Source of the DNA: Bacteriovoracia bacterium | GTDB lineage: Bacteria > Bdellovibrionota > UBA1018 > CAIPTA01 | Assembly: GCA_050246755.1 (NCBI GenBank) | Contig: JBFWVL010000001.1 | Coordinates: 608,001-672,000, forward strand | Reading direction: 5' to 3' | Length of the DNA stretch: 64,000 nt | In this document: in pieces, positions 16,035-51,615 of the stretch | Numbering within the stretch: the stretch's first letter is position 1 | How the letters are laid out: each line of letters begins with the position of its first letter | Notes under the pieces: generated by a model | The model's input: only the letters and a program-made list of their open reading frames with translations | The model's database searches: none | Told to the model about the DNA's origin: nothing | Program-made: the position numbers and the translations under genes

Positions 16035-16091
16035 TAAGGAACGACCGCGCAGTTCTTGAAGGCCCCTTCTTCGGCGAACCCGGCGAAGCGA
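16035..16091. repeat. Left copy of a direct repeat: non-coding duplicate of the 3' end of gene 48284..50299
   Basis: taaggaacgaccgcgcagttcttgaa---ggccccttcttcggcgaacccggcgaagcga aligns with 48285-48348 at 55 of 57 positions plus one 7-nt gap. Confidence 0.95.
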
Positions 16092-16136
16092 ACCGGTTGC
16101 CGGACCTGGAAGCCCCTTAGGGGCTCAGAAAAAAAT

Positions 16137-16544
16137 CTAGGCTTCGGCCTTTTCTGTCGCCGTTTCAACGAGAACTTTCTCCACTACCTGCAATAGGTCC
16201 GTCACGCCGAAAGGCTTGCGCAGAATCCCGCAGGCACCCTGCCTAGCGGCTTCGCTGGCGGAGAAATCGAAATAAGCCGAGATGAACAGCAAGGGTGGCG
16301 GATTGGGCAGAGCCAGCCTCATTTGCTTCAGCAGCGTGGGCCCATCGCCCCCGGGCATGCGGATATCGCTCACCACGAGATCAAACCGGCTCGCTAAAAC
16401 CATTGCGAGGGCCTCTGTGCCGTTCTTCACGCCCACCACTTCAGCGCCTTCTTCCGAAAGTATCTCATAAACGGCCATGCGGATCTCGGGCTCGTCTTCC
16501 GCCACGAGCACGCGCTTGCCTAGCATTTTTTTCGCGGGCTTCAT
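16137..16544 (-). CDS. Single-domain response regulator
   Basis: VLVAEDE, VSDIRMPGGDG and KPF; ATGA overlap with the kinase. Confidence 0.9.
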   Translation of the reverse strand: MKPAKKMLGKRVLVAEDEPEIRMAVYEILSEEGAEVVGVKNGTEALAMVLASRFDLVVSDIRMPGGDGPTLLKQMRLALPNPPPLLFISAYFDFSASEAARQGACGILRKPFGVTDLLQVVEKVLVETATEKAEA

Positions 16545-18070
16545 GACTTCTTCGGCTCCTTGGGCAGGGAAACTACGAACCTAGTATGCGGGGAATCCTC
16601 ATCGAGGAATAATTTTCCGCCATGGGCTTCCACGATGCCCCGGCTGATACTCAAGCCAAGGCCCGTGCCTTTGCCGATTTCTTTGGTGGTAAAGAACGGA
16701 TGCATGATCTTGGAGCGCAGACTTTTTTCCACGCCGGGGCCCGAGTCAGTGATGGAAATCTCAAAGCTCACTTTATCCTCGCGCGCCTCGATCCTCACCC
16801 AGGGCCGGGAGGATTCTTGCACGGCATCGAATGCGTTATTGAGGAGATTGAGAAAAACCTGCGCGAGCTGTACCGAGCGGCATTCAAGCTGAAGTGCCGT
16901 CTTAGGTACCTTCACGCTCAGATCGATATTGTGGCTCATGAAACGGGCGGAGCAGAGGGAGAGCGTGTCTTCGATCACGGCACGGAGATCGCAGGAATCC
17001 ATGGGATCGAAGCGGGAATCCCGGGCGAAGCTCTTCAGGCCCTTAATGATTTTGGCGATACGGTCCACGGTTTGGTCTACTACTTTGATTTTTTCCATCA
17101 GCCAGGCGGGATCGATGCTCTTCTCGCGTTCGAGCTTGAGGGTGATTTGCTCGGCCTTGGTTTTGATGATGGTGAGCGGATTATTGATTTCGTGGGCAAG
17201 GCCGCCCGCCATCTCCCCTAAGCTTGCAAGCTTGGAGGACTGGGTGATACGGGCCTGAGATTCACGCTGCTCGGTAAGATCGTGCCAGGTCATCAGACTG
17301 AGATCATGGCCGTTGATGGTCACGCGGTTGAGCGTCACTTCCACCGGGAATTCGGTGCCATCGGTTTTTTTATACGTCCACTCGAAGCGGTGAAAGCCTT
17401 TCGCGCGCGCAATGGCCTCCATCTCCGGAAATTTCTCCTCGGATTTTCTTCCATCGGGCTGCAGCTCAGAAGAGTGGAAAAGGAGAGGCCGCCGCATCAC
17501 CTCATCTTTCTGCCGGTACCCGAGCATATGCAGGGTGGCCGCATTGCAATCGATCATCTCGGTATCGTCGAAGAGGAGGTAGGCATCGGAGGAGCGCTCG
17601 AAGATCATCCGGAAATTATCTTCTTCAACGATCTTTTGCCGACGGATATTGGTCTGAGTTCCTACCACGCGGCGGGCCTGGCCGCTGGAATCACGTTCCA
17701 CCACTTTGCCGCGCGTGGAGACCCAGATCCAGTCGCCGTTCTTATTTTTTACTCTCGTATCCGCGTGAAAATAAGGACTCTCCCCCCGGAGATGGCGGCG
17801 GAGCAGCTTAAGGGCCGTAGTTTTGTCGTCGGGATGAATGATGGATTCCCAGAAGAAAAGACCGCCGGGGATTTCATCCGGCTTTAGGCCGAGCTTTTGG
17901 CACCAGGGCGCGCTCACATAGAAAGTATCCCGCTGTAGATCCCAATCCCAGATGCCATCGCTGCTGCTTTCGAGCGCAAGCCGGAGCCGCTCAGGGCTCT
18001 CGAGTGAAGGATCCAGTCCGTTGCGGCTGGAAGAAGATATCGGCAAATCGGTGCTTTCGTGGGCGTTCAT
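16541..18070 (-). CDS. Cytoplasmic PAS-PAS sensor histidine kinase (NtrB-like)
   Basis: DGIWDW and IIHPDD PAS motifs; H-box AHEINNPL; NLLNNA, PFFTTK and GTGLGL. Confidence 0.92.
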   Translation of the reverse strand: MNAHESTDLPISSSSRNGLDPSLESPERLRLALESSSDGIWDWDLQRDTFYVSAPWCQKLGLKPDEIPGGLFFWESIIHPDDKTTALKLLRRHLRGESPYFHADTRVKNKNGDWIWVSTRGKVVERDSSGQARRVVGTQTNIRRQKIVEEDNFRMIFERSSDAYLLFDDTEMIDCNAATLHMLGYRQKDEVMRRPLLFHSSELQPDGRKSEEKFPEMEAIARAKGFHRFEWTYKKTDGTEFPVEVTLNRVTINGHDLSLMTWHDLTEQRESQARITQSSKLASLGEMAGGLAHEINNPLTIIKTKAEQITLKLEREKSIDPAWLMEKIKVVDQTVDRIAKIIKGLKSFARDSRFDPMDSCDLRAVIEDTLSLCSARFMSHNIDLSVKVPKTALQLECRSVQLAQVFLNLLNNAFDAVQESSRPWVRIEAREDKVSFEISITDSGPGVEKSLRSKIMHPFFTTKEIGKGTGLGLSISRGIVEAHGGKLFLDEDSPHTRFVVSLPKEPKKS

Positions 18071-18170
18071 AGCAGTCAGATAGTAACAGCGAGTTCTCTA
18101 TAGCAGGTACTTTTTCGCATTATGCCCATAGTCGAAAAAAACGAATTCTAGTTATTCCGCGAAGGTTGCT

Positions 18171-19337
18171 TTACCTTTGCGGAAACTTTTCTGACCATTC
18201 CCGGGCACTCTCGAGCATCGCCATACTAGCCTCGTACTCATTTTCCATGAATTGAAATAGGCGCTGCAGCAATTCCGGGGAAACGCGCCGCCGGCCATCG
18301 GCTGCGGTTTCCTCATCGTAGATCCGCTGAAGCGCTTCGGCCGGCGAAATTTCGGTGCCCGTTTCGGCCCCCGAAATCAAGCCCTCGAAATAATTGGCGA
18401 GAATGAGGAGCTGAGAAGTTTCATCGATCTCGTTGCCGCGCAGGCTATTGGGGAAACCGGAACCATCGTAGCATTCGTGATGCTGGGCGATCATCCGGTA
18501 TACCCGCGGATGGAAGCCCAGGCCGCTCTCTTTGATCAATGCGAGGCTCTTGTCCACATGCCCGTGGAAGACCTCTAATTCTTCCGAGGTCCGGGCCGAG
18601 TTCGGCTTGGCGGCCACTTCGGCCATATCGATTTTTCCGACATCGTGGAAAACCGCGGCTACCACCATATCGGCAAGAATCACTTCGTCGGCGTGGCCCA
18701 GGCACATCGCGAACATCACGCTAAGCGTGCCCACGCCGGCGGTATGATAGATGGCCTCCTGAGACGCCCAAATCTTCAGCACCTCTGAATAGACGTCGCT
18801 CTCCTGCGAGGCCACCAGCAAGATTTTATCCACCACTTCTTTGCTGCGCTTAAAGCCCTCTTCGCGGGCCTTCTCTCCCCTAGCGGTGATCTGATTGATC
18901 ACGCGCAGCGCATCTTGGCTCACTTCGGAAAGAATCTCGGCCTTTTCTTTCGCATCAAGCTGCTCGTCCTGCAGCACGTCCTCCACGAGCGAAGGATAGT
19001 CCTCGAGGTCTTTAGGCTGGAGCAGAGGCCCGGCGGCTGCGGCCTTCTTTGTTGTCTCGGCAGTATGCGTGGAAGCGGCTAGCTGATCGGTAACGGCGCC
19101 CGCTACTCCTTCACCTTTCTCGATGAATTCCTTCAGCTCCTTTTTTGTCCAAAGGCTAAAGTGCGCCTTCTCTTTCAAAAAAGAATATTTATTCAAACCG
19201 ATCGGATCGCCCGCGTGCCGGAGCGGGATAAATTTCTCATTCCGAGGAAAGTGCAGAAAAATAGGGAATGGCAGCCCAACCAAAGGATCTATTTCGTTGA
19301 TGGAAATAGAAATCATGTCTTCCAGTTTCGCTTTCAT
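18171..19337 (-). CDS. HD-GYP domain protein (variant motif)
   Basis: FHDVGK and HHECYDGSGFP; the downstream motif reads LANYFEGL instead of xADxxDAx. Confidence 0.88.
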   Translation of the reverse strand: MKAKLEDMISISINEIDPLVGLPFPIFLHFPRNEKFIPLRHAGDPIGLNKYSFLKEKAHFSLWTKKELKEFIEKGEGVAGAVTDQLAASTHTAETTKKAAAAGPLLQPKDLEDYPSLVEDVLQDEQLDAKEKAEILSEVSQDALRVINQITARGEKAREEGFKRSKEVVDKILLVASQESDVYSEVLKIWASQEAIYHTAGVGTLSVMFAMCLGHADEVILADMVVAAVFHDVGKIDMAEVAAKPNSARTSEELEVFHGHVDKSLALIKESGLGFHPRVYRMIAQHHECYDGSGFPNSLRGNEIDETSQLLILANYFEGLISGAETGTEISPAEALQRIYDEETAADGRRRVSPELLQRLFQFMENEYEASMAMLESAREWSEKFPQR

Positions 19338-19393
19338 CCGTGAAAGCCCTCACATGCAACGATCATTACTAAGGAGCGCGTCCTACGCTCAAT

Positions 19394-19409
19394 TGTTATG
19401 ATATTGTTG
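19394..19409. promoter_or_regulatory. Putative OmpR-family direct-repeat box TGTTA-tgatat-TGTTG upstream of the HD-GYP gene
   Basis: 11-bp-periodic half-sites; differs from the box at 20407 by one base. Confidence 0.6.
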
Positions 19410-19431
19410 TGAGGCTACTTAATCAAGTTGG

Positions 19432-20133
19432 CTATTTAAGGAAACTAAGCCGCTTGGTCTTTGGCCGAAGGATATACCCTTCTCCATACATGGAAAGGAT
19501 CTCGTGGTCGCAATCCGCAATGCGCTTTCTAACCGATACCAGGTGGGCGTCTACGGTGCGGGTTGAGATTTCCTCTCCCTTCCAGACTTCCTCGACAATC
19601 TCCTCGCGCTTCACGATGCGGTTCGCGTTCTCGATGAAAAACTTTAGGAGCCGAAACTCCAGGGAGCTGAACTTTACCTCTTTGCGGTCGATCTCCACGG
19701 ACATAGCCTTGTTCGAGAGCTGAAGATTGCCGCAGCGCACGAGTTCAGCGCCTTGGCTGGCCTTTTTCCGCAGCTTGGCCGCTACCCGGGCCTTAAGCTC
19801 CTCGATGCGGAACGGCTTTTCGATATAGTCGTCGGCGCCATACTCAAAGGCGCTCAGAATCGTGTCTAGCTCGGTGCGGGCGCTAAGGAACAATACCGGC
19901 ACATCGCGGGTACGTACCGAGGATTTGATCTTCTTACAGAGATCGATCCCGCTCATGCCGGGCATGGAAACGTCCAGCAGCACTAGGTCCGGTAGGGCCT
20001 TTTCCATCGCGCTCCATGCCTTAGTGCCCGTAGAGGCCGAGCTCACGGAATAGCGCAGGGAAAATTCTTCCACCAAAAACTCTACGATCTGCTCCTCATC
20101 GTCGACAACGAGGAGGGATAAATTCTCGCCCAT
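19432..20133 (-). CDS. OmpR/PhoB-family response regulator
   Basis: Receiver (VVDDE, LLDVSMP, KPF) plus winged helix (EFRLL, VW, RTVDAHL, YGEGY). Confidence 0.93.
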   Translation of the reverse strand: MGENLSLLVVDDEEQIVEFLVEEFSLRYSVSSASTGTKAWSAMEKALPDLVLLDVSMPGMSGIDLCKKIKSSVRTRDVPVLFLSARTELDTILSAFEYGADDYIEKPFRIEELKARVAAKLRKKASQGAELVRCGNLQLSNKAMSVEIDRKEVKFSSLEFRLLKFFIENANRIVKREEIVEEVWKGEEISTRTVDAHLVSVRKRIADCDHEILSMYGEGYILRPKTKRLSFLK

Positions 20134-20156
20134 ATGAAATATAGTTTATGATAGCT

Positions 20157-20172
20157 AAACAAAATAGCAACA
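20157..20172. promoter_or_regulatory. Possible reverse-orientation box (AAACA-aaatag-CAACA) upstream of the OmpR-family gene
   Basis: Same half-sites and 11-bp period, but the spacer does not match the other boxes. Confidence 0.35.
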
Positions 20173-20406
20173 TTCACCCATTCTTTTTCCATTTTTATTT
20201 TCCAGGCAAGGCCATTTTCTCGTCGAGAGTCTCTTTTTTCCGATTTTCTCCCGCCATCCGCGGCATTTCACCCCGTATATTTTTATTTTTGTCAATACTC
20301 CGGGAAAACGGCCCTTCGCCAGCCTAACGTCAACAGGTAGGTTTGAGATTTTCCTGTGCCCCAGCCTTCGGTAGGGGCAAATTGCGCGACAAGCCCCGGG
20401 CGCATT

Positions 20407-20422
20407 TGTTACGATATTGTTG
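20407..20422. promoter_or_regulatory. Putative box TGTTA-cgatat-TGTTG between the OmpR-family gene and the glycosyltransferase operon
   Basis: 15/16 identical to 19394-19409. Confidence 0.6.
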
Positions 20423-20466
20423 AGGTGAAGAAGATGCCTGATCGTATGAAAAATGGCCGCCCTCTC

Positions 20467-21759
20467 ATGGACGAGAGACGGACCAAGCAGAAGCGTATTC
20501 GCGTGGCCCACCTGTGGTGGGACTATGTTCCCGAAAGCTTCGTCGAGCCCCACTCCTACTTTCGCTTCGACCCCCAATTCTCCTCCCGCAATCTGGTTTG
20601 CCAGCTCTGGGAGAACGGAAAGAAGGCCGATGCGGCTACCTCGTTTCTTTACCGCGCAGCCGCCCAAAAGCTCGTGAATCCGGGCGTGGTATTCCGTATA
20701 TTCATGCGCCTAAGCCGGCCGTGGCGCTGGACGCGCTTCCGGAGATTCGTGCGGCGCAGCTTCCAGGCCAATTCTCCCGCCCTAGTCCATTCGCATTTCG
20801 GTACCACCGCCTGCGAGATGACTCATTTAGAAAAACCCCAAGTGGTCACCTTCTATGGTTACGACGGCAGCGCCGCCCTTTTCCAGCCCGCCACGGTGAA
20901 AAAATACCAAGAGATGTTTCCCCGCATAAATAAAATCATCGTGCTCTGCGAAGCGGTGAAACAGCGCTTAGTGGAGCTCGGTTGTGAGCGCAATAAAATC
21001 GCGGTCTGGAACATGCCGGCCGGGGTTGAGCGCTATCCTTATTTCAAGCGTAAGCCCGGCTCCATTTTTCGAATCGTGATGGCCGCTCGCTTTGCCGAAG
21101 CAAAAGGACATGAATACCTACTCGAAGCCGTGCACCGGCTCGTGCAGGACGGACGCTCCCTCCACCTCACGCTACTCGGTTATGGCAACCGAGCAGCGCA
21201 AATCAAAAACCGAATTGACGAGCTAGGCCTTAGCTCTCACGTGACCCTCACCGACAATCACCTAACCGGAGATTTTCACGCCGCCTATCGCTCCGTGCTT
21301 GAACAGAGCGACCTCTTCGTTCTTCCTTCGATTCGCGATAGCCGCGGCACCGATGAAGCTGGGCCGGCTCTCACCATGGTTTGCGCGCAGGCCTCCGGCA
21401 TCCCCGTGGTGTGCACTCCTTTTCCGGGCGCAGAAATTTCATTGATCCCCGGGGAAACCGGTCTTTTTTGCGCCGAGAAAGATCCCACCTCTTTGGCCGA
21501 TTGCATCGATTTCTTCCTCCAGAACCCCGAGCAGCGGGAAACCATGGGCCGACGGGCAAGCGAGCTCGCGAACCGGGAATTTTCCGAATGGACGCAGATG
21601 GATGAGCTGACACGCATCTACGAAGAAGTGCTGGGAATTTTTTCACCCCTGCCCAGTACCGGCACTTCCACCCTGGCGCAAAGCCCCGAAGGAAAAGAAC
21701 CTCAACTGCAGCGCCCGCCAACGCCCTTACCGCCGCAAAGGCAACCGGAGTTTTTTTAA
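20467..21759 (+). CDS. Glycosyltransferase family 4 (WcaL-like)
   Basis: VHSHFG, TFYGYD, ARFAEAKG and DLFVLPS. The start is uncertain (ATGs at 20434 and 20467; ORF from 20356). Confidence 0.88.
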   Translation: MDERRTKQKRIRVAHLWWDYVPESFVEPHSYFRFDPQFSSRNLVCQLWENGKKADAATSFLYRAAAQKLVNPGVVFRIFMRLSRPWRWTRFRRFVRRSFQANSPALVHSHFGTTACEMTHLEKPQVVTFYGYDGSAALFQPATVKKYQEMFPRINKIIVLCEAVKQRLVELGCERNKIAVWNMPAGVERYPYFKRKPGSIFRIVMAARFAEAKGHEYLLEAVHRLVQDGRSLHLTLLGYGNRAAQIKNRIDELGLSSHVTLTDNHLTGDFHAAYRSVLEQSDLFVLPSIRDSRGTDEAGPALTMVCAQASGIPVVCTPFPGAEISLIPGETGLFCAEKDPTSLADCIDFFLQNPEQRETMGRRASELANREFSEWTQMDELTRIYEEVLGIFSPLPSTGTSTLAQSPEGKEPQLQRPPTPLPPQRQPEFF

Positions 21760-22701
21760 ATGCAGGCCCTAATCCAGCAGCATCGGAAGCAATTTCCTTG
21801 CGACAGCATCGCTGGATTCACGCTGATCGACTGGCATTGCCCCACGTGCGGCCCCACCAGCCAAGAAAAAGTTTTAGGGTATCGATCCACGGGTCAGGAG
21901 CGTAATGTGCTTACCACTCGCTTGGTGCAATGCACGAACTGCACGCTGATCTACGCGAATCCCTTTCCCGTGGCTAATTATCCGGCCGGTCTCTATGAAA
22001 ATCCGGAAAGTTACTTTGCCGGGCACGAGTCGGCGCAGAAGATCACGGCTAACCGCGAGATCCTGAAAAAAATGAAGACACTCATCGGCGCTACCCCCCG
22101 CGTGCTCGACGTGGGCAGCGGTTGCGGCGAGCTCTTAGTGGCCGCATTGCAGGAAAATATCGAAGCGGTGGGAATCGAGATTTCTGATGGCATGGTAACC
22201 GCGGCCGCCGCGCGCCACTCCGTGTCCGTGTTCAAACAAACGGTGGAAGAAAGCGCCGAAGCCTGGCCAAGCGCCTTCAATGGTATCGTCCTCAACGCCG
22301 TGCTCGAGCATGCCTACGATCCGGACCGAATGATCGCGTCCGCCAAAAAACTGCTTCTCCCCGGCGGCATACTGTATATCGACGTGCCCAATGAGCCCAA
22401 TATTCTAACTAGGGCGGCGCACGTGGTGAACCGCCTCGTGGGCGGCAACAAAACGTTTTGCCTCTCTCCCACCTGGGAGCCTTACCATGTCTACGGATTC
22501 AACCCTCGCGCCCTGGAAGCTTTGCTCACCAAGCACGGCTTTCGCGTAGAGGAACTCAGCGTGTTCGCCAGCTGCGGAATGGCGGCCCAATCCGGCTTAA
22601 AACGTAAAGCCCAGGCATGGCTGGCCAACCACCTTAATACGATTGGAAATCTCACGGGCACCTCGGGAAATTTATCCCTCTGGGCGCGTTTGGAAAAATA
22701 A
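21760..22701 (+). CDS. Class I SAM methyltransferase with N-terminal Zn ribbon
   Basis: CPTC...CTNC, VLDVGSGCG, VLEH and VPN. Confidence 0.9.
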   Translation: MQALIQQHRKQFPCDSIAGFTLIDWHCPTCGPTSQEKVLGYRSTGQERNVLTTRLVQCTNCTLIYANPFPVANYPAGLYENPESYFAGHESAQKITANREILKKMKTLIGATPRVLDVGSGCGELLVAALQENIEAVGIEISDGMVTAAAARHSVSVFKQTVEESAEAWPSAFNGIVLNAVLEHAYDPDRMIASAKKLLLPGGILYIDVPNEPNILTRAAHVVNRLVGGNKTFCLSPTWEPYHVYGFNPRALEALLTKHGFRVEELSVFASCGMAAQSGLKRKAQAWLANHLNTIGNLTGTSGNLSLWARLEK

Positions 22702-22712
22702 AGGAGGGCAAC

Positions 22713-23708
22713 TTGGCAAATATCAGTTCCTTCCACGGAAAAAAAATCCTGATCACGGGTGGACTCGGCTTTGTGGGCAGTAATCTCGCCCTCGCCCTAG
22801 TGCGCGCGGGCGCCGAGGTAACGATCATCGATAACCTTTCTCCCGGCTGCGGCGGGAATATCTTCAACGTGCATCCGGTCCGCCGCTCGCTGAAAATCCA
22901 CCAAATAGATCTTTGCGACCAGGAAAAACTGCTAGCTTCGGGAATTTTCAATCGCAATTTAGATTTTGTGTTCAGCCTGGCCGCCCGGGTGAGCCACATC
23001 GACAGCATGCAATTCCCTCTGGAAGACCTTCGCACGAATGCCACCGCCGAGCTTACCCTGCTCGAGTGCCTGCGTCATCACTCACCGCAAGCCCGAGTCG
23101 TGCACACCGGCACGCGCCAAGTATTCGGGCGCCCCGCGTATTTTCCGGTGAATGAGAATCACCCGATCCAGCCGGTAGACATCAACGGCATTCACAAATA
23201 CTGCGCCGAGCAATATCATCGCACCTACCACGAAGCCTTCGGCCTTCGCACCACCGTGTTGCGCCTGACGAATACCTACGGGCCTCGACAGCTAATCCGG
23301 CCTTCTACGCAAGGAGTAGCGGGTAATTTCATCGGGCGCGCTTTACGCCGGGAGGAGATCGAGCTCTTCGGGGATGGCGAACAAACCCGTGACTTCAACT
23401 TCGTGTCTGACGTGGTGGAAGCCCTCCTCCTCGCGGTTACGACCGACGCATGCTCCGGTGGTACGTATAATCTCGCTGGCTTCAATCATTCGGTGGCCAG
23501 CTTCCTCCGGCTCCTCGCCCAGGAAGTGCCGATCTCGGTACGCAGCATAGAATTTCCTGCCGATCATAAAAAAATCGAGATCGGGAACTTCGCCGCCTCG
23601 GCCGAAAAATTCGCGCAAGCCACGGGATGGAAACCCGCCGTGGACCTCAGCCAAGGCATTGGTGAAACTCTTCGTTTTTTCCGGGACAATGCCGCATGTT
23701 ACCTGTGA
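22713..23708 (+). CDS. NAD-dependent epimerase/dehydratase
   Basis: ITGGLGFVG, NGIHK in place of YxxxK, NTYGPR and RDFNFV; GGAGG RBS before TTG. Confidence 0.92.
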   Translation: MANISSFHGKKILITGGLGFVGSNLALALVRAGAEVTIIDNLSPGCGGNIFNVHPVRRSLKIHQIDLCDQEKLLASGIFNRNLDFVFSLAARVSHIDSMQFPLEDLRTNATAELTLLECLRHHSPQARVVHTGTRQVFGRPAYFPVNENHPIQPVDINGIHKYCAEQYHRTYHEAFGLRTTVLRLTNTYGPRQLIRPSTQGVAGNFIGRALRREEIELFGDGEQTRDFNFVSDVVEALLLAVTTDACSGGTYNLAGFNHSVASFLRLLAQEVPISVRSIEFPADHKKIEIGNFAASAEKFAQATGWKPAVDLSQGIGETLRFFRDNAACYL

Positions 23709-26832: not shown

Positions 26833-26834
26833 GG

Positions 26835-27731: not shown

Positions 27732-28405
27732 ACCGCCGACTCGCTAAAGTGCCGGAGCTGCTCGAAAGTATCGATGGATATCCATTTATCGGGGTACACG
27801 TCCGACACATGCAGCATCCCCTGAGAAATAAGCTGGGCCCAAACGGAATAGAAATCGTCGCAAGCCTCCGTAAGCTCCGCGATCCGGCGCGGATTCAAGA
27901 TCTGCACGCCAGAACAGTAAATATCCGAGCGCAACTGACGATCGAGGCGGGTCACCTGCGAGCCGTTCCGAAAAATAAAGTCGCCTTCGAGGCCGGTCAC
28001 GGGGCGCACCGGCACGAGCATGCATGGCGGAGCCCCGAGGGAAAAATAGTTTTTTTCGAGCAGATCGAAATCGAGGCTCACCACGTTGTCGCAGGTGAGA
28101 ACGTAGATCGGCTCGTCGAGATTCGCCAGCAAGGTATGGTAGATCCACCAGGCATTGCCTTGCCCCTCGGTATTGAGCACCGTAGCCGCGCCGAGCTCGA
28201 TCACGTGCTGGGCCAGCATTGCTTTCTTGTAACCGACGGTGATGTGCACGCGCGGTACCTGATCAAGCAAGCCGCCGATGCCGCGCGCGATCAGGGTTGA
28301 CCCCTGGAACTGCACCATAGGTTTCGGCACGGTATCGGTAAGCGGCGCGAGACGCATGCCCCGCCCCGCCGCCATGATCAGCGCGTTGCGAATTTTCCTG
28401 CTCAC
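27728..28405 (-). CDS. Sugar-phosphate nucleotidyltransferase family protein
   Basis: MAAGRGMRLAPLTDTVPKPM signature. Confidence 0.9.
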   Translation of the reverse strand: MSRKIRNALIMAAGRGMRLAPLTDTVPKPMVQFQGSTLIARGIGGLLDQVPRVHITVGYKKAMLAQHVIELGAATVLNTEGQGNAWWIYHTLLANLDEPIYVLTCDNVVSLDFDLLEKNYFSLGAPPCMLVPVRPVTGLEGDFIFRNGSQVTRLDRQLRSDIYCSGVQILNPRRIAELTEACDDFYSVWAQLISQGMLHVSDVYPDKWISIDTFEQLRHFSESAV

Positions 28406-29355: not shown

Positions 29356-29381
29356 CTTCACTCTCAATCCTTGGGAGGAAA

Positions 29382-42059: not shown

Positions 42060-42123
42060 GGGTTGATTCTACTCCTTGAATCAATTTGCTAGCCCATATT
42101 CCAATAGGATAAATTGAATAGAA

Positions 42124-43317
42124 ATGATTGTTAAGCAAAAGTTGCGTACACGCCCGCCCGGTGGGCCGGCCCAAACCATCATCCTCGCGGCGAATACCGC
42201 CTGGTACCTTGCGAATTTTCGCCTTAATCTCGCGCGTGCGCTCCGGGCCGCCGGTTACCGCGTATTGCTCATTGCCCCTCGCGATGAGTTCGCGGAAAAA
42301 TTATCCGCCGAAGGCTTCGAGTACGTGGGCTGGAACCTATCCCGCACCGGTCTCGGAGTGCGTGAAACAGCACGCGCTTTCTGGAGCCTCTATATCGTGT
42401 ACCGGCGGGAGCGCCCAATCGCGGTGCATCACTTCACGCTAAAATGTATTTTACTCGGGAGCGCGGCGGCGGCGCTGGCCCGGGTGCCAAATGTCTTCCA
42501 TTCGGTCACGGGGCTTGGGCATCTTTTCATTCATAGATCTTTGCGCATTCGTTCTCTTCGCTCCATCACGGTTTTGCTCCTGCGTGTATTTTTTTTCTTC
42601 ACGAAACCACGGATGATTTTTCAAAATCACCAAGACTGCGCCCGCTTCCGCTCCCTACGCCTCGCTCCTCCCGCACGCAGCCACCTTATTCCTACTTCCG
42701 GCATCGATGTCGCCTTCTACCGTCGCGAAGCGCCGCCCAGAATTCCCTCCGGCGAACGGCCGATCGTGCTCTACGCGGGCCGCATATTGGCGGAAAAAGG
42801 AGTGAGGGAATTCGTGGCCGCCGCCTCGCGGCTTCGCGCCGAAGGAATAGAGGCGCGCTTTCTGCTCGCAGGCGCGACGGACGCCGGCAACCCTTCTTCC
42901 ATCGCCCCCTCGCAACTCGCCAGCTGGAAACGAGACGGAAACGTAGAATTGCTGGGCCATGTTTCCGATCTGCGCCCGCTCATGGCCGAGTCCGCCGTGT
43001 TCGTATTACCCTCCTATCGCGAGGGCGGATCCCGCGTAATCCTCGAGGCGGCCGCGATGGAACTGCCGATAATCACCACCGACGTGCCGGGTTGCGAGAA
43101 TCTCGTCGATCACGGAAAAACCGGCTTAGTGGTACCCGTTCGCGATGCCGCCAGCCTCGCCGGAGCGATTCGCGATCTGATTGCCAACCGGGAAACTGCG
43201 GCTCGCATGGGCGCCGCCGGGCGGGCAAAGGTAATCCGCGAATTCTCCGATGAGATAGTCGTCCGCGCCACGCTCAGTGCCTATTCCTCGGCCGGCATCT
43301 CCGGCTCTTGCCTCTGA
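42124..43317 (+). CDS. Glycosyltransferase family 4 (CapM-like)
   Basis: NFRLNL, HHFTLK, TGLG, FQN, SGID, GRILAEKG, LPSYREG and TDVPGC. Confidence 0.93.
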   Translation: MIVKQKLRTRPPGGPAQTIILAANTAWYLANFRLNLARALRAAGYRVLLIAPRDEFAEKLSAEGFEYVGWNLSRTGLGVRETARAFWSLYIVYRRERPIAVHHFTLKCILLGSAAAALARVPNVFHSVTGLGHLFIHRSLRIRSLRSITVLLLRVFFFFTKPRMIFQNHQDCARFRSLRLAPPARSHLIPTSGIDVAFYRREAPPRIPSGERPIVLYAGRILAEKGVREFVAAASRLRAEGIEARFLLAGATDAGNPSSIAPSQLASWKRDGNVELLGHVSDLRPLMAESAVFVLPSYREGGSRVILEAAAMELPIITTDVPGCENLVDHGKTGLVVPVRDAASLAGAIRDLIANRETAARMGAAGRAKVIREFSDEIVVRATLSAYSSAGISGSCL

Positions 43318-44570
43318 GCTAAGTAAGCCAGCAGCAGCAATAGCAGCGGAAGCACCTGCAGACGGAAACGAAAAGCCGAGCCGAGATTTTGGTAAGACAC
43401 GTAGCTATAGATAAAGCTCCACGAAAAAAGCAGGCTAATCGCCCACACCGCCGCCGGGTCGAAAAGCCGTCGCCAGGTGAAACGGCGGATCGAAAGATAA
43501 ATCAGGAATAGCAGGAATAAATTCTCGATTCCGGCCAGCGTCCCAAAGAGGTTGCGCACTTCTCCTGGTAAAGGACGCAGAAGCGCCGTGAACATTCCCG
43601 CCGGCGCAAACGCGATCATTTCCCCGATTGACTGGAACTCCGGAACCTCTTGCCGCGAGCCACCGACGCTCCAAGAGCGCGAGATAATATTAGTTTTCCG
43701 CACCAAATCATCCACGCTCTTAAAAGTGAAGTGCTCCACGAAAATCTGTGCTGAAAGAAATAGCAGCGCCACGGAAAATAGCGCGTACCCGACCCGGTAG
43801 AAGGCGCCGCGCACGTAAAAGAACCCGAGTGGCAGCATGGGCAGAGCGAGGATGAAGGCCGTCCAGGGGCGAATGCTCGAGGCTAACACCGCCCCCGCGA
43901 ACGCGGGAAGAATCCAAATGAGGTTTCTGGTGGCCATCCAGTAGAGAACTCCCGCGGCGTAAACCGATATACCGAGCAGCATAATCGGATCTTTTCCTAA
44001 AATCGAAGACCAAAAGACGACCGAAGGGAACGCACCTAAAAAAAGCAATAACCGAGGATTCCTCCGCCCCGAATACCGAATCGCCGCCGAATAAATTAAA
44101 TATATCGATAATAGACCGATCAACGAAAAAATAACTTTTAGCGCGTGGTAGGAATTCGAGCTCGGCAGCCACTTATTAATATACCAAATTAGCCAGCCGA
44201 TATTGCCGGTGCCTTTTCCGAATCCCGTGAGGCTGGTATCGAAATTAATTTCTTTCGCTTCGAGGTAGTAGGTATAGGCATCGAGACCGTAGTTATTTTC
44301 GTATAGCAGCATGAAGCCCAAGGTAGTGAGGCAGCGGAGGATCCAGAGCACCGCCAAAATCCGACGGTCCTCTCGAGACAACGGCGAGATCCAGAGCGCC
44401 AGTCCGATGCCGAACGCCAGCACCAGCGCGGTGGCATAGTCTGTGGCTACGTTTGCCGAAGGAATGAAGTGCCCCCACTCCGTGACGCAGGCGAGAAACA
44501 CGCAGGCCGCAATACCCCCCAATATTCCCATCACGGCGCCGGTACTTGTTTGTGAGAAAAACCTACTCAT
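43281..44570 (-). CDS. Multi-TM protein, probable Wzy-type polymerase
   Basis: About 11 hydrophobic segments with DAYTY, WSSILGKD, LRPLPGE and NLGSAFRFR; ATG 44570 overlaps the upstream stop. Confidence 0.72.
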   Translation of the reverse strand: MSRFFSQTSTGAVMGILGGIAACVFLACVTEWGHFIPSANVATDYATALVLAFGIGLALWISPLSREDRRILAVLWILRCLTTLGFMLLYENNYGLDAYTYYLEAKEINFDTSLTGFGKGTGNIGWLIWYINKWLPSSNSYHALKVIFSLIGLLSIYLIYSAAIRYSGRRNPRLLLFLGAFPSVVFWSSILGKDPIMLLGISVYAAGVLYWMATRNLIWILPAFAGAVLASSIRPWTAFILALPMLPLGFFYVRGAFYRVGYALFSVALLFLSAQIFVEHFTFKSVDDLVRKTNIISRSWSVGGSRQEVPEFQSIGEMIAFAPAGMFTALLRPLPGEVRNLFGTLAGIENLFLLFLIYLSIRRFTWRRLFDPAAVWAISLLFSWSFIYSYVSYQNLGSAFRFRLQVLPLLLLLLAYLAQRQEPEMPAEE

Positions 44571-46102
44571 ACCGCAGTTTGATTTGTATTCGCACCGTGG
44601 GCGTCGGCGTGGGCCAGCTGGAAGAGATAATTTGACTCCGTGCCAGCTTCTCCTTCCGCGAGCACTTCTTGCACTTCCCAATCTACATTGAGGTAGCTAT
44701 TCGAATATTGAAGCGCAAATAAATTTTGAAAGTCCTGGAGTTTTCCCATGAGCAAAGCCTTCGTAGCGATGCGTTCTCTGGCATGCACTCGGCCCTCGAA
44801 AAAAATATGCATCTCGGAATTCTTTATGAAGTAGTTATCACCTTTCGTCAAAATCGATTCGACAACCAAGTTGAGACTGCGCATGATCTCAACGATCCTT
44901 CCCTTTTCCTCCCATAATCCGCACTGAAAGAGCGGCTCGAGGTTCACCTTCGCCACCAAGCAGGGTTGAAAGCCGAGCTTCAGGGATGCTGGTCGCGAGG
45001 AGTTGTCGCCAAAAGAAGCCGCCAAACTCCCAGTACGGCTCATCTCGAGCAGCTTCAAAAAATAAACCGGCACGCAGATTCCCGCCGCCACGATCACCAA
45101 CAGCAGCGTCACGGCGATGGGAAGAGAGAAACCTACACGGAAGCTCTCGCTGCGCGCCAACTCGATCACGAGGAAAGCGCTCGTCTGCAGGTAGAGCGTA
45201 AGCCCTAAAATAAGCGTCACCACCCGCGCCGGGGGTAGATTCATCCGCAGCAAGCGGTGGTGCAAATGGCCACGGTCGGCTTTAAAGATTGGATTTCTCG
45301 AGCGCAGCCGCCGTAAAGTGCATAAGCCCATGTCGAGGATCGGGTAGCCAAGCATCATCAGAAGCCCAAAAACCTCCGAGAAAGAGGCCGTAGACACCGG
45401 CCCCGCCAATGAAGTAAGTCCGATGAGAAAGCCAATCGGCAAACTGCCGTTATCGCCAAAAAAGACGGAAGCCGGGCTCCAGTTCTTCGCGAGGAATGCT
45501 AATACCGCGGGCAGCAGCAGGGCGCTCACAAGCAGGCTCAAGATTCCCTGATTCGCCCCGACCGCCAAAATCGCAATACTCGCCAGAATGAAGGCCGAGA
45601 TCCCGCCGGCCAGGCCGTCGAGCCCGTCCACCAGATTCATCGCGTTGCTTACGCCCACCAACCAGACACCCGCGAGAGGCCAGGCAAGCCAGCCAATTCT
45701 CGCCTGCCAGCCCAGACAGAATTCTCTTATTTCCGGCACCGCCGCGATCACCACCGCCGCCACGAGGAACTCTACCGGCAATTTCACTCGCGGCGAGAGG
45801 CCGCGCAAATCGTCGTAAAGGCCAAGCGCGCATAGCACGCCCGCGCCTCCCGCGATCCACGAAAAAGACCAAGCGAGGTTGGTCCACAGCTGAGGGTGTA
45901 GAGAAAAATAAATGGCGCAGGATAGATACCAGGCGGCCATCACCGAGATCCCGCCCACCATCGGCATCGGATGCAGGTGACGCCGGCGCGAGCTCGGGTG
46001 GTCCACCCAGCCCACCTTCTTAGCGAAGGGAATACTCGCTCGCAAAATGGCGTGCGCCAAAAGAAATGACAGAAAAGGAAACCACAAATCGCGAATGTTC
46101 AT
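44567..46102 (-). CDS. wecA: MraY/WecA-family undecaprenyl-phosphate HexNAc-1-P transferase with C-terminal extension
   Basis: GLYDD, NAMNLVDGLDGL, FFGDNGS and DRGHLHHRL; GAGG RBS. Confidence 0.88.
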   Translation of the reverse strand: MNIRDLWFPFLSFLLAHAILRASIPFAKKVGWVDHPSSRRRHLHPMPMVGGISVMAAWYLSCAIYFSLHPQLWTNLAWSFSWIAGGAGVLCALGLYDDLRGLSPRVKLPVEFLVAAVVIAAVPEIREFCLGWQARIGWLAWPLAGVWLVGVSNAMNLVDGLDGLAGGISAFILASIAILAVGANQGILSLLVSALLLPAVLAFLAKNWSPASVFFGDNGSLPIGFLIGLTSLAGPVSTASFSEVFGLLMMLGYPILDMGLCTLRRLRSRNPIFKADRGHLHHRLLRMNLPPARVVTLILGLTLYLQTSAFLVIELARSESFRVGFSLPIAVTLLLVIVAAGICVPVYFLKLLEMSRTGSLAASFGDNSSRPASLKLGFQPCLVAKVNLEPLFQCGLWEEKGRIVEIMRSLNLVVESILTKGDNYFIKNSEMHIFFEGRVHARERIATKALLMGKLQDFQNLFALQYSNSYLNVDWEVQEVLAEGEAGTESNYLFQLAHADAHGANTNQTAV

Positions 46103-46151
46103 CCATGAACCTCGTTAAGCTTCATCCTGAAGCGAAAACATTTAAAAAACT

Positions 46152-46658
46152 TTAGAGCTCCTTCTTAATCAAAATTCCCGTTAGTGCCGCCGTCAGCAAG
46201 GTGGCCACCACGGTAATCGTAAGCATCGTATTATTGGAGACCGCCGGCTTTTCGGTGGGAATAAATACGGTATCTTCCCCTCTCAGAATCGGCGATTTCC
46301 CGCTGCTAGCTAGAAGATCGTGAAAATCTACCTTGTCAATCCTGCCCGCACGCTCGTTCTTGATCGTGATATCGTCCATCGCGGAGTTATCGCCGGTTCC
46401 GCCGGCGATCGAGAGCAAGGTAGTTAGGCTCGTATTCTGCGGCACGTGGTAGATTCCGGGGCGGTGCACATTCCCCAGCAAAAAAACCGGCATGAGCTTT
46501 TGCTCGAGCTCATCGCCATAAATATATTCGGAAAGCTGCTGAATATTCTGCTTTTCCCGCTCGAAGGTTCCGGCCCTTTCCGCCGCCACGGCGCTGCGAG
46601 AGAACGAAAGAATGAGGATCCACACGAACGCTTCTCTGCTTTGTTTCCACACAGTCAT
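46152..46658 (-). CDS. SLBB-domain polysaccharide export protein (short Wza-like)
   Basis: VFLLGNVHRPGIY, LSIAGG, LRGEDTVFIP and a C-terminal hydrophobic helix. Confidence 0.8.
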   Translation of the reverse strand: MTVWKQSREAFVWILILSFSRSAVAAERAGTFEREKQNIQQLSEYIYGDELEQKLMPVFLLGNVHRPGIYHVPQNTSLTTLLSIAGGTGDNSAMDDITIKNERAGRIDKVDFHDLLASSGKSPILRGEDTVFIPTEKPAVSNNTMLTITVVATLLTAALTGILIKKEL

Positions 46659-46698
46659 GCCTAAATAATACCAGCTATTGGCGAGGGGTCGAAAAAAT

Positions 46699-46714
46699 AA
46701 TTGTGCAATTGTTG
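46699..46714. promoter_or_regulatory. Degenerate box AATTG-tgcaat-TGTTG upstream of the wza-like/wecA/wzy unit
   Basis: Second half-site and spacer pattern conserved; shares gcaattgttg with 48160-48169. Confidence 0.45.
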
Positions 46715-46726
46715 CGATCGCTTGGC

Positions 46727-47614
46727 TCACGCCACCGGATGCGATGAGAATTCACAAATGATTTCGGTCTTGCAATCCGTCAACACGGTGCCCGCATGGA
46801 TTGGCAACCCGGTATCCGCCAAATAAATCATTGCGCCCTTCGATTCCAAGTAACCCACTAAAGCTGCAGCCGAAGATCCATGTTCACGTAAATTCTGGTC
46901 GGAAAGCTCGAGGAAAATTTTGGGACGGAAACGATCGATCGTCTGTGCTGCCCCTTGGAGAACCTGTAGCTCGAAACCCTCCACGTCGATCTTGATCGCG
47001 TCCACATTTTCGATTTTCGATTCCTCTATGTAATCGTCCATACGCACCACCGGCACTTGGGTATAGTCTTTTCCGGCCGGACTTTCCGGCAGAATCCGGT
47101 TCATGCCTGGGTTGCGCTCACATACGCGATAAAGATTTAGCCGCGCGTTTCTGGCACCGAGGGCGCATGGTTCGAGCACCACATTCGCCAGACCGTTGAT
47201 CTCTACGTTTTTCTTGCAACGGGCAAAGTTCATCCCGTCGGGCTCAAATCCAATCACCCGTCCTCCGCTCCCCACCGCCCGCGCGAAACGCATCACAGTA
47301 GATCCAATATTGGCCCCCACGTCGAGCACCGTGCCATCGCGCCTCACCATGGAGAAATATTTGTCCTGCTCTTTCTCTCGGAGCTCAAAGTACACCGCCC
47401 AATCCACGAGGTCGGAAATATCGAGCTCGAACTCCAGGCCAAATCGCGAAACCCGGCGCCAGCTCGGCTTAGGATATTGGTAATGATTCGGAATCACCTT
47501 CGTCCACCGCGATTCCAGCGGCGCGCCCTGCACGAAACGAAGTAATATCTTTTCGGTCGCGGGAAAAATAAATATCCGGCGCAACTGATTAAGAACGGTC
47601 GTTTTTATTTTCAC
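46727..47614 (-). CDS. FkbM-family methyltransferase
   Basis: LDVGANIG, GFEP and KIDVEGFE; clear paralog of the Wzx-fused domain (shared PNHYQYP). Confidence 0.92.
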   Translation of the reverse strand: MKIKTTVLNQLRRIFIFPATEKILLRFVQGAPLESRWTKVIPNHYQYPKPSWRRVSRFGLEFELDISDLVDWAVYFELREKEQDKYFSMVRRDGTVLDVGANIGSTVMRFARAVGSGGRVIGFEPDGMNFARCKKNVEINGLANVVLEPCALGARNARLNLYRVCERNPGMNRILPESPAGKDYTQVPVVRMDDYIEESKIENVDAIKIDVEGFELQVLQGAAQTIDRFRPKIFLELSDQNLREHGSSAAALVGYLESKGAMIYLADTGLPIHAGTVLTDCKTEIICEFSSHPVA

Positions 47615-48147
47615 TTTATTTCCACGCTAACGATTCCGGCCTTCGCCGCGAGTTTGATCGCCGCCAAAGCAACCGTCTCGCTCAGCGAGGATTCCTGCAG
47701 CTGAAACTCTACGGCGGCTCCGTCCTTATTCTCGTGCAGCCATGCTTCCCCGCTAAACGTTTGACCTAACGGCGATTTGGCCCTCACCTTCCATGGCCCA
47801 GCCGGCCGGCTCCGTCTTCCTCTCACCCATACCTCTACCGATTTTTCCTCCGGCAACAAGGCCGTGAGGAAACTGGATTTCGTGTCCAGGCGAAAATACA
47901 CTTCATCCGCACCGGTACTTTTTTCCGTAATCTTAAAAAACTCTTCCAGCCTGGAAGACGATTTCCCCTTACCCACCGCTTGCGGGACTCCCGGGGTGAA
48001 CAGCGCGGCCACGATCTCCGAAGGCGCGGCATAAACTTGACGCGACACTACGGGAACTTTCAGGTCGGCGGCGCCGGCCGGCCCAAACTTGAGCAGGAGA
48101 AAAATAAATGAAAAGGACCACGGAAGTCGCGTCGTAATGGTGATCAT
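47611..48147 (-). CDS. Exported hypothetical protein
   Basis: Signal-like N-terminus; 4-nt overlap with the FkbM gene. Confidence 0.65.
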   Translation of the reverse strand: MITITTRLPWSFSFIFLLLKFGPAGAADLKVPVVSRQVYAAPSEIVAALFTPGVPQAVGKGKSSSRLEEFFKITEKSTGADEVYFRLDTKSSFLTALLPEEKSVEVWVRGRRSRPAGPWKVRAKSPLGQTFSGEAWLHENKDGAAVEFQLQESSLSETVALAAIKLAAKAGIVSVEIK

Positions 48148-48153
48148 TACAAT

Positions 48154-48169
48154 AGTTTAGCAATTGTTG
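48154..48169. promoter_or_regulatory. Degenerate box AGTTT-agcaat-TGTTG upstream of the first gene of the polysaccharide locus
   Basis: Same period and spacer pattern as the other boxes. Confidence 0.45.
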
Positions 48170-48283
48170 TGCATGCAGCAGTAATAAAATAATGCGACGG
48201 CAGGATACTCTAGCTACACACGGCGGCAGGTAGCGCGAAGGCCGGACTTAGTCGTCGCAAAAATTATCTTTCGCTTTTAAACA

Positions 48284-50299
48284 CTAAGGAACGATCGCGC
48301 AGTTCTTGAAAGCCCAAGGCCCCTTCTTCGGCGAACCCGGCGAAACGAGCTTGTTCAGGAAATCGACCGCGAGCTGCGCGGACCATCGGCCCTGGAACTG
48401 CTCGTAGTAGGGAAGCATCGCGGTGGCGGGAATCACCATCTCCGGCGAAAGTAGCGCGGCGGCCCCTACCTTCACCGTCATCTGCTTTTCGCCCTTCGCT
48501 TTCTGTACCATGATGCTGGTAATCTGCTGCTTGGCCGGCTTGCCGAGCTTATAGAAATCGCAGCTGATCTTGGCGTCGCGCAGCTGAATTTCCTGAGCCC
48601 AAGTGATCGCGGCGATATCGAGCTTGAAATTCACGTCCACCGGAAACTTCTGCAACGCTTCATCGTCGGAACCCGAGAAGCCTTGGAGCTTCAGCGTCAC
48701 GTTCAGCGTGCCCTCGCTCGATTTCGCGAGCTTTCCGGCGCGCACGAGGAGCTGAAGAGCGAGCGGAGCAGTGCTGAGGGCAGGCACGGTGAGATCACGG
48801 ATCTCCGCCGGCGAGGCGAGATTAAATACTCTTCCATCGGCAAGCTGCACGTATACCTCGGAGCCGGGAACGGTCTTCGAAGACCAGTCCAGCGCCACTT
48901 CGAAGCGCTGGGTGCCGCGGGGGCCTAGGTCCTGCCTGCCCGAGTTCTTCAGCGTGAAGCTCAGCTGCTGGGCCACCGAAAAATTCCCGCTCACCTTTTT
49001 TACGCTACCAGAGAGCGCGATCGGCCAACCGATGACTAAGCCGGATTCGAGCTCACCGCCGATGCGGATATTATTGATTCCGATTTGCAACCCCACGGCG
49101 GCGTTATCGCCGATCAGGGAATTACGGTTCGGAACCTGCATCATGAGCTGGCCCTTGCGGAAACGGAGCACATCGCTCTGGGTGCCGGCGGCAATCACCG
49201 GGAAGGAAGTCACCATTGGCCCAGGGGCAACAAGTGTGGAACTCGGAAACATCGAAACCTGAATAGTCTGCGCCGCGGGCGAAGGCATCGGGCCTGTATT
49301 TTTCAATTGCACGGCCACGAGGTGCGCCCGTTCGCCCGGCTCGAGGATTCCATCCTCATCGTCGTCGATGAAACTGGCGGAGGCCACTTCGAGGCGGAAG
49401 GGGGCGTCGAAGCTCTGGGTAGTGCCGTCCGCCGAAACTAATTGAAAGCTGCGGGTACCGGTGCGGCCATCGCTGCCGCCGTAACCACTCGAACCGCTAC
49501 GGCCATTGCTGCCGCTGCGGCCGTCACTGCCATTACGACCGTCGCTGCCATTCCAGCCGGAGGAACCATCGGCGCCGCCAATAAATTCGCCTTTATCATT
49601 CTTGCAGGTATTTCTTCCGCCCGATCCGCCGCGGCCACCCGATCCGCCTCGACCACCGTAGCCACCTCGGCCGCCCGAGCCACCGTAGCCACCCGAACCG
49701 CCGGCCCCTCCTTCACCCCGGCGCACGTCCACTTGCACGAGCAGCATCAGCTCACTCTGGTCGGGAGCCGTCGAGACTACCACGGAGCCGCCGCTTCCGC
49801 CGTTCCCGCCATTTCCACCGTCGCCGCCGTCTTCGCCGTCCGTTCCGTTGGTGCCGTCACTGCCGTCGGTTCCGTTCGATCCGTTTCCGCCGCTGCCGGG
49901 AGGACAACCATCGGAACCGTTCGATCCGTCGGAACCATCGCGGCCGCTCCATCCGTCCGAGCCATTGCGCCCATCGCTGCCATTGGAACCCGAAGATCCG
50001 TTGGCGCCGTCGCCACCGCGCGCACGTGCCACGATGCCGCGCAAATCCTTGAGCGCAATTTGCTGCGAGATCTCGGTCGTCTTGCCGCCTCGCGTGCGGG
50101 TGCCGGTAAGGGAAACCACCGTCTTCGCGGCGTCGGCGTAAGCGAGGTGAAGAACAATACTGCCGCCCTTGGTGCCGTCATAGCCGCTGTAAGATCCGTC
50201 CGAGCCAGAGGCGTCGATAACAATGGTGTCACTGTCGGCGTGGGCAGAGGCGGCGAGCAGGCTCGCGAAGAGTACGAAAGCACCGAATACTTTTTTCAT
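48284..50299 (-). CDS. Secreted protein with Gly-X-X repeat region and C-terminal beta-rich (Ig-like) domains
   Basis: GGAG RBS; signal peptide ending AHA; long GSNGSDGRNGSDG/GGxGGx runs; DDDEDGILEPGE. Confidence 0.88.
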   Translation of the reverse strand: MKKVFGAFVLFASLLAASAHADSDTIVIDASGSDGSYSGYDGTKGGSIVLHLAYADAAKTVVSLTGTRTRGGKTTEISQQIALKDLRGIVARARGGDGANGSSGSNGSDGRNGSDGWSGRDGSDGSNGSDGCPPGSGGNGSNGTDGSDGTNGTDGEDGGDGGNGGNGGSGGSVVVSTAPDQSELMLLVQVDVRRGEGGAGGSGGYGGSGGRGGYGGRGGSGGRGGSGGRNTCKNDKGEFIGGADGSSGWNGSDGRNGSDGRSGSNGRSGSSGYGGSDGRTGTRSFQLVSADGTTQSFDAPFRLEVASASFIDDDEDGILEPGERAHLVAVQLKNTGPMPSPAAQTIQVSMFPSSTLVAPGPMVTSFPVIAAGTQSDVLRFRKGQLMMQVPNRNSLIGDNAAVGLQIGINNIRIGGELESGLVIGWPIALSGSVKKVSGNFSVAQQLSFTLKNSGRQDLGPRGTQRFEVALDWSSKTVPGSEVYVQLADGRVFNLASPAEIRDLTVPALSTAPLALQLLVRAGKLAKSSEGTLNVTLKLQGFSGSDDEALQKFPVDVNFKLDIAAITWAQEIQLRDAKISCDFYKLGKPAKQQITSIMVQKAKGEKQMTVKVGAAALLSPEMVIPATAMLPYYEQFQGRWSAQLAVDFLNKLVSPGSPKKGPWAFKNCAIVP
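48285..48348. repeat. Right copy of the direct repeat: last ~21 codons of the Gly-rich gene
   Basis: Aligns with 16035-16091; similarity ends at the stop codon (TAG here, TAA in the left copy). Confidence 0.95.
49455..50025 (-). repeat. Two blocks of Gly-X-X triplet repeats
   Basis: 9-bp periodicity in the DNA (ccgtcgctg/ccattgctg variants); Gly at every third residue. Confidence 0.9.
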
Positions 50300-51593: not shown

Positions 51594-51615
51594 ACCTGAT
51601 TTTTCCGAAAATGAG

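Follow-up and report, generated by a model that had tools for sequence, protein, structure and literature searches.

Does a direct repeat at the two ends of a surface-polysaccharide locus mark a cassette that can still move, or is it what is left of an old event? The question is raised by a 64,000-nucleotide (nt) stretch of a Bacteriovoracia bacterium genome (contig JBFWVL010000001.1; the whole stretch is called the window here, and positions are counted from its first letter), in which 32.2 kb of regulator and polysaccharide genes lie between two copies of the 3′ end of a gene for a secreted, collagen-like protein. An earlier examination of the letters alone (the sequence-only reading) had described this repeat and the missing integrase and had proposed that the locus is an exchangeable cassette, docked at a surface-protein gene and mobilized in trans or by recombination. 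After comparison with the whole genome, with related genomes and with independently assembled contigs, we lean towards the view that the repeat is a fossil recombination joint produced when the block was inserted, with no evidence of a working device now.

A unique direct repeat of a gene's 3′ end

The repeat, the block and the genes beside them are placed as follows (aa, amino acids).

13558..15486, minus strand: 642-aa gene, a DUF4082 repeat protein and an orphan of the left flank
15633..15986, minus strand: 117-aa gene, a membrane-anchored orphan, with a promoter-like site at 16022-15995 between the left copy and its ATG
16035..16091, minus strand: left copy, the decayed last ~19 codons and stop of the collagen-like gene
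16092..48283: bracketed block, 32.2 kb, with four signaling genes, a Wzc-type polysaccharide locus and a 178-aa unknown protein
48285..48348, minus strand: right copy, the native 3′ end of the 679-aa gene, encoding ...VSPGSPKKGPWAFKNCAIVP and then a stop
48284..50323, minus strand: host gene, a 679-aa secreted, collagen-like, Gly-rich protein with a DUF7932 domain (PF25560, 2.6e-10)
50535..51593, plus strand: divergent partner, a 352-aa secreted protein of no known family that forms a two-gene module with the host gene
52598..52672, minus strand: tRNA-Gln, the only tRNA in the window, from which synteny with congeners starts rightward

Pairwise alignment of 16035-16091 with 48285-48348 confirmed the repeat much as the sequence-only reading had given it: 55 of 57 bases are identical, and there is one 7-nt gap (agcccaa, held by the right copy only). 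The copies are in direct orientation at a spacing of 32,250 nt. Their stop codons on the minus strand, TAA at 16034-16036 on the left and TAG at 48284-48286 on the right, occupy the same position in the alignment, and the similarity ends there. Inboard of the gap the pair shares an identical tract of 29 nt; outboard of it there are identical tracts of 11 nt and 10 nt.

To place the pair in its genome, we searched a 71-nt right-copy query against all 3,546,152 bases of the 10-contig, apparently metagenome-derived assembly. The query found itself (E-value [E] 3.7e-31) and the left copy (E 8.9e-16); of the 14 matches with E ≤ 10, the third-best had an E of 0.22 over 23 nt. Comparison of the genome with itself returned four direct pairs on the same contig (40-150 nt, at least 85% identity, 3-200 kb apart), among which the 16035/48285 pair ranked first by E-value. 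In the window, no long-range repeat other than this pair (repeat families D9 and D10 of 15) exceeds 90% identity. Whole-genome search and self-comparison thus agree that the pair is unique and is not a dispersed repeat. The search for further copies was equally empty elsewhere: the core of the repeat was absent from viral contigs (searched as an exact 29-mer), from plasmids and from phages. Outside the window, one contig carries a 256-nt direct repeat of 96% identity with its copies 120 kb apart (G000:C1:36968-37222 and 156921-157176).

The repeat ends sharply on both sides, on one of them exactly at the stop codon. Extended homology around it was considered and rejected: past the stop, the observed local score was attained by 1337 of 2000 shuffles, and on the inner side by 267 of 2000, so that neither side shows significant homology.

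The right copy consists of the stop codon and the final 20 codons of the 679-aa open reading frame (ORF). Among 5.8 billion proteins, five homologues of this protein were found, at 45-75% identity, and in the six-sequence alignment the C terminus is conserved as ...DFLNK.VSP.SPK.GPW.F..C..., with W670, F672 and C675 invariant in all six family members. This conservation across the family implies that the right copy is the native, selected end of the gene. The 7 nt missing from the left copy include the codon for the invariant Trp, and for that reason the left copy is a dead relic. It sits in a spacer of 150 nt, bounded by the stop of the response-regulator gene (16137) and the start codon (ATG) of the 117-aa gene (15986), and the only ORF that runs over it is an implausible one of 44 aa that overlaps the response-regulator gene. 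The 7-nt loss lies between short AAG repeats, as would be expected of slippage.

One arrangement in independent assemblies

Sequencing runs from three studies contain this DNA, and contigs of four runs (X1 to X4) were compared with the window over positions 38000-57999. A 62,467-nt contig of run X3, which belongs to another study, is collinear with the window across both copies and the block, its net length being unchanged. The two copies on this contig, too, are 32,250 nt apart and show the 7-nt gap and an equal number of differences, and the 30 nt before its left copy are identical to 16005-16034. Since a single independent contig holds both copies at this spacing, the structure is not a misassembly. 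Over 13.7 kb, X3 and the window have 347 differences (~2.5%). The arrangement predates the split of these two strains, which are ~2.5% apart, and it is fixed in the strains sampled.

The right junction is also bridged by contigs of X1 (23,302 nt, the probable source), X2 (2,926 nt) and X4 (289 nt). Among the contig pieces listed at this junction (four runs, three studies), none had the empty-site form, and the only loose end listed at the right copy was X3's own left copy; contigs drop rare variants, and a rare excision could escape a comparison of this kind. Read depth inside the block equaled that beyond tRNA-Gln, at 21.1 versus 21.6 in X1 and 12 throughout in X3.

That no integrase accompanies the block, as the sequence-only reading had stated, was upheld on a wider scale. 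No integrase or recombinase family matched in Pfam scans of the 47 window ORFs, and none of the 11 PF00589 and four PF00239 matches from six-frame scans of the genome lies inside the window; the nearest recombinase match is ~15 kb past its right end. No transfer gene was found in the window either. An Rfam-type RNA scan of the window matched tRNA-Gln only. An island at this tRNA-Gln was considered as a separate candidate and rejected, there being no partial copy of the tRNA elsewhere in the genome and no integrase nearby.

Origin of the bracket

The repeat is sharply bounded, highly similar and direct, and its outer end is a stop codon; as a consequence, insertion is the most economical origin for it. 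In the ancestral state, the collagen-like gene would have ended beside the 117-aa gene, which on this account was its former downstream neighbor. The 32-kb block of regulators and polysaccharide genes would have entered between the host-gene stop and the 117-aa gene by one recombination within the last ~60 nt of the host gene, either through site-specific integration of an element bearing a copy of the gene end or through a Campbell-type single crossover of circular DNA bearing a gene-end segment. The gene would thereby have been left with an intact end, which selection kept, while its displaced end, beyond the block, would later have lost 7 nt (by slippage between the short AAG repeats) and changed two bases. 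The catalyst would have gone since, or would never have been on the block. The geometry of integration at a gene's 3′ end that the sequence-only reading had invoked stands to this extent, with a restored gene, a displaced and decaying end and indirect support for a secondary arrival; the mobility that the same reading attached to it is unsupported.

That the block came in later, separating the gene from its former neighbor, has circumstantial support, which comes from relatives. We compared eight genomes of the family, 126 other genomes of the class and six loci that carry homologues of the host gene. The flanking genes for the 642-, 117-, 679- and 352-aa proteins were each found in 0 of the 126 class genomes, the host gene being sought by its C-terminal domain, and the 117-aa gene was found in none of the eight family genomes either. 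The block does not have the phyletic pattern that these four genes have in common, and the pattern fits the idea that both flanks were once one accessory segment, which the block would have split. The six homologue loci have neighbors other than those in the window. At the five with ~10 kb of downstream DNA, tblastn searches with all proteins of the window gave no match for the polysaccharide ones, and scans of 28 neighboring ORFs at the homologue loci revealed no integrase and no polysaccharide enzyme.

The host gene and its partner appear to travel as well. A homologue of the 352-aa gene adjoins the host-gene homologue in four of the six loci (L014, L015, L016 and L018). At L014, DNA homology with the window (74% over 3,329 nt) covers exactly 48283-51604, from the host-gene stop to just past the stop of the 352-aa gene. 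The two module proteins are 76-80% identical to their L014 counterparts, and any other gene matched on that contig is at most 62% identical, which suggests that the module itself has been transferred horizontally. In metagenomes, this pair of collagen-like and 352-aa genes occurs in unrelated genomic contexts.

A further set of comparisons concerned the polysaccharide loci of the family. Wzc homologues are present in seven of the eight family genomes, at 24-27% identity. The loci adjoin lon in genomes G006 and G007 and the NAD kinase and RecN genes in G004, and they lie beside other backbones in G005 and G008. In the present genome, both the lon and the RecN site are occupied by ordinary genes, apart from a lone DegT gene next to RecN. 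Across these genomes, the polysaccharide loci of the family change place.

Several results weigh against an insertion. No empty or alternative site, which the sequence-only reading had proposed to look for in relatives, turned up in the four runs from three studies, the eight family genomes or the six homologue loci, so that the insertion is inferred and not seen. The immediate flanks have no homologues in any relative; given the absence of the flank genes from the family and class genomes searched, no empty site is possible in those genomes. The relatives are, in addition, metagenome-assembled and fragmented. At L014, the gene downstream of the host-gene homologue is unrelated to the 117-aa gene (E 0.10), and it is unrelated to the 178-aa gene as well. 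The stretch without synteny runs from the start of the window to tRNA-Gln (52598) and is much larger than the block; since it reaches that far, the repeats do not mark lineage-specific edges. Composition does not differ inside and outside the block: the GC content (guanine plus cytosine) is flat across it, and the tetranucleotide distances of its 5-kb windows rank at 0.08-0.72 among 1404 genome windows. With a composition this native, the block, if acquired, would have come long ago, or its source would have been a similar genome or another part of this one. Finally, none of the six homologue loci has the gene end a second time within 10 kb, and the polysaccharide loci of G004, G006 and G008 are without flanking repeats at E ≤ 1e-3. 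There is therefore no sign of a recurrent mechanism, nor any sign in these sequences that the gene end serves as a recurrent docking site.

The bracket can be set beside three kinds of known system. Genomic islands, integrative and conjugative elements and integrative and mobilizable elements integrate at the 3′ ends of tRNA or protein genes by means of tyrosine recombinases. The bracket has their direct-repeat geometry, a repeat length in their usual range and a repeat end that coincides with a gene end. Unlike them, it has no recombinase by the repeats or anywhere in the 64-kb window, no mobility genes, no shift in composition and no presence/absence polymorphism in the available samples. 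Capsule and O-antigen loci, of which pneumococcal cps between dexB and aliA is an example, are exchanged by homologous recombination in conserved flanks. The likeness here is that the surface-polysaccharide locus is variable: related genomes have it at other positions and with other content. The flanks of those loci, however, are conserved in all strains and are not direct repeats of each other, whereas the flanks of the block are orphan genes and its bracket is a duplicated gene end.

The closest comparison is with cis-mobilizable elements (CIMEs), examples of which are reportedly found in Streptococcus thermophilus at the 3′ end of fda. In the part of PMC5704250 that treats them, CIMEs are elements without integration and transfer genes that have kept their flanking attachment (att) repeats. 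The block resembles them in lying between direct repeats that include the 3′ end of a protein-coding target, with the gene restored and the old end displaced, and in lacking integrase and transfer genes; the likeness is one of geometry only, and att activity is putative. It differs in that one repeat has a 7-nt deletion and that the cargo, native in composition, is made up solely of regulators of a chromosomal type and of polysaccharide genes. A related, integrase-bearing element using this site is not known and was not found in the genome or among the viral contigs, plasmids and phages, and because of this we do not file the block as a CIME; it would be better described as resembling an integrase-less, decayed island.

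Among other explanations, the main rival is a duplication followed by deletion, in which the left copy is a remnant of a second copy, or of an earlier position, of the gene or the module, and the block never moved. It gains from the apparent transfer of the two-gene module and from its occurrence in unrelated contexts (76-80% versus at most 62% identity at L014). Against this, a duplication or deletion endpoint would by coincidence have to match the stop codon exactly; around the left copy, neither the downstream spacer nor the remainder of the gene nor the partner gene has left a trace; and the absence of polysaccharide genes beside the module everywhere else is left unexplained. We consider this course unlikely, although more credible than any of the alternatives that follow. 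A regulatory role is very improbable. Each copy does precede a minus-strand gene, the 117-aa gene at a distance of 49 nt and the 178-aa gene at 137 nt, and the eye can trace an imperfect hairpin of 7 pairs in the shared tract, as a cis-acting DNA or RNA motif upstream of two genes would have it. The shared segment is, however, coding sequence conserved at the protein level and ending at a stop codon, there are only two copies, nothing in the window apart from the tRNA matches Rfam, and the 117- and 178-aa genes are unrelated by eye and belong to no common family. A chance match is excluded by the E-value of 8.9e-16 in the genome search. That the contig was misjoined at the repeat might be suspected of a 10-contig genome apparently assembled from a metagenome, but this is effectively refuted by the collinear 62,467-nt X3 contig and by the bridging of the right junction in X1, X2 and X4.

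The proposal closest to the sequence-only reading is that the block is an integrase-less but mobilizable element, CIME-like, with the two copies as functional attL and attR and a recombinase supplied in trans. Its geometry is identical to that of an old insertion, the 11 tyrosine- and four serine-recombinase matches in the genome could in principle act in trans, and the polysaccharide loci of the family are positionally unstable. Yet the genome holds no other copy of the repeat, so that no resident element shares the site; the core is missing from the viral contigs, plasmids and phages; no second gene-end copy lies within 10 kb at the six homologue loci; the occupied state is found in all contigs listed over the right junction, from three studies; depth is equal (21.1 versus 21.6 in X1, 12 throughout in X3) and composition native; and the 7-nt deletion of the left copy falls inside the putative site. 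An exchangeable cassette mobilized in trans, lacking a recombinase or transfer gene as well, is therefore not borne out, and we regard a live element as improbable. Slightly less probable still is that both copies remain usable sites at which a recombinase elsewhere, or RecA, could excise or swap a 32-kb coat cassette at an adhesin gene. If this were true, it would amount to a coupled coat and adhesin switch in a Bdellovibrionota-type organism, with the coat turned off and the C terminus of the adhesin remodeled according to the crossover point.

If the repeat is instead the scar of an old insertion, the only present activity that the sequence would allow is a rare homologous deletion across the 29-nt and the shorter identical tracts. 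The minimum length for RecA-dependent exchange is ~20-30 bp. We modeled the products of such an exchange. If the exchange falls in the 29-nt tract, the protein becomes 715 aa long: its last 10 conserved residues are lost, and it gains a 46-residue tail, which reads into the start of the 117-aa gene. If it falls outboard of the gap, the protein keeps its length of 679 aa and a single residue changes. The sequence-only reading had anticipated such a C-terminal frameshift, dependent on the side of the gap, and the modeled products agree with it. Either crossover would remove the genome's only Wzc-type locus together with four regulators.

An insertion of this kind would mean that a whole surface-polysaccharide locus can be relocated with its regulators as one block in a poorly studied lineage, and, by its scar at the junction, the event would be older than the divergence of the two strains (~2.5%). 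No new mechanism of mobility is revealed at present. The repeat is useful as a marker for strain comparison, and it warns against calling islands from a direct repeat alone.

Content of the block and neighboring genes

The sequence-only reading had described the cargo as signaling and glycan biosynthesis, and Pfam and NCBIfam scans bore this out. The block is gene-dense and is made up as follows.

16137-16544: response regulator (family scans)
16541-18070: PAS histidine kinase (family scans)
18171-19337: HD-GYP-type protein (family scans)
19432-20133: OmpR-type regulator (family scans)
20356-47614: Wzc-type surface-polysaccharide locus (Pfam and NCBIfam)
47611-48147: 178-aa unknown protein

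The polysaccharide locus has the hallmarks of a Wzc/Wza-type locus, namely, an initiating transferase, a tyrosine autokinase, an export protein and glycosyltransferases. The autokinase is of the Wzc type (TIGR01007, 111.4 bits versus a cut-off of 108.05), and its gene is the genome's only one at E ≤ 1e-20. The initiating transferase is of the WecA type, with a match to PF00953 and a TIGR02380 score below that model's own cut-off; the export protein is an SLBB protein. GT4 and GT2 glycosyltransferases, FkbM and other methyltransferases, an AsnB-type amidotransferase, a DegT aminotransferase, dehydratases/epimerases and a nucleotidyltransferase are also encoded. With regard to the flippase (Wzx) and the polymerase (Wzy) of a Wzx/Wzy-dependent locus, two large ORFs of membrane-protein size (30169-31707 and 43281-44681) were considered; they have no Pfam match even at E ≤ 1, and homologues of both sit in the polysaccharide loci of relatives. 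Genes of the G006 polysaccharide locus are 24-62% identical to genes of the block, which makes the block typical of the family in content. The lone DegT gene mentioned above (L047 5581-6780, G000:C1:1219581-1220780) encodes a DegT-type sugar aminotransferase and directly follows the NAD kinase and RecN genes, the position that the whole polysaccharide locus takes in G004; an ancestral locus there may have left this gene behind.

The 679-aa host protein has a signal peptide, long collagen-like Gly-rich tracts and the DUF7932 domain, and its C-terminal half matches no family. Matches to collagen-adhesin profiles were weak and below cut-off. In the Atlas model of the protein, the nearest structures were CARDB/DUF11-type immunoglobulin (Ig) proteins (template-modeling [TM] scores of 0.33-0.46), so that the C-terminal region weakly resembles Ig folds of this type, a lead only. 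A full-text literature search for DUF7932 found no paper. The two-gene surface module formed by this collagen-like protein and its secreted partner deserves to be flagged, turning up as it does in unrelated contexts.

To the left, the 642-aa DUF4082 gene contains a 300-nt direct repeat (14390-14689 and 14843-15142, 71% identical), which corresponds to a two-fold domain duplication that is visible in the protein too. DNA synteny with the five congeners was also sought over 1-20000 and 20001-40000 and rejected, the matches being short, at the level of single domains, and of paralog level on the contigs that carried them. tRNA-Gln is a synteny breakpoint in all five congeners, and two congener contigs end at it or within ~130 nt of it. 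To its right, synteny with the five is good, with 70-78% DNA identity and up to ~85% protein identity from ClpB and HtrA onward.

The X3 strain differs from the window on both sides of this breakpoint. The 920 nt between the 352-aa gene and the tRNA (window 51662-52583) are replaced by 1,402 other letters, and to the right of tRNA-Gln (52583-57595) 5.9% of positions differ (295 in 5.0 kb), versus 2.5% over 38000-51662, a stretch that takes in the end of the block and the two-gene module. Fast evolution of a repeat protein could account for this difference, as could a more recent shared history on the left side. Between tRNA-Gln and the ClpB-like gene, the window has an extra gene (53456-56866) for a 1136-aa protein with seven purple-acid-phosphatase-N/FN3 repeats, of which G004 has a 50% identical copy on another contig. 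Extra radical-SAM and DUF1513 genes (59181-61806) lie between the ClpB-like gene and HtrA, a gap that measures ~2.9 kb here versus ~230 nt in G002.

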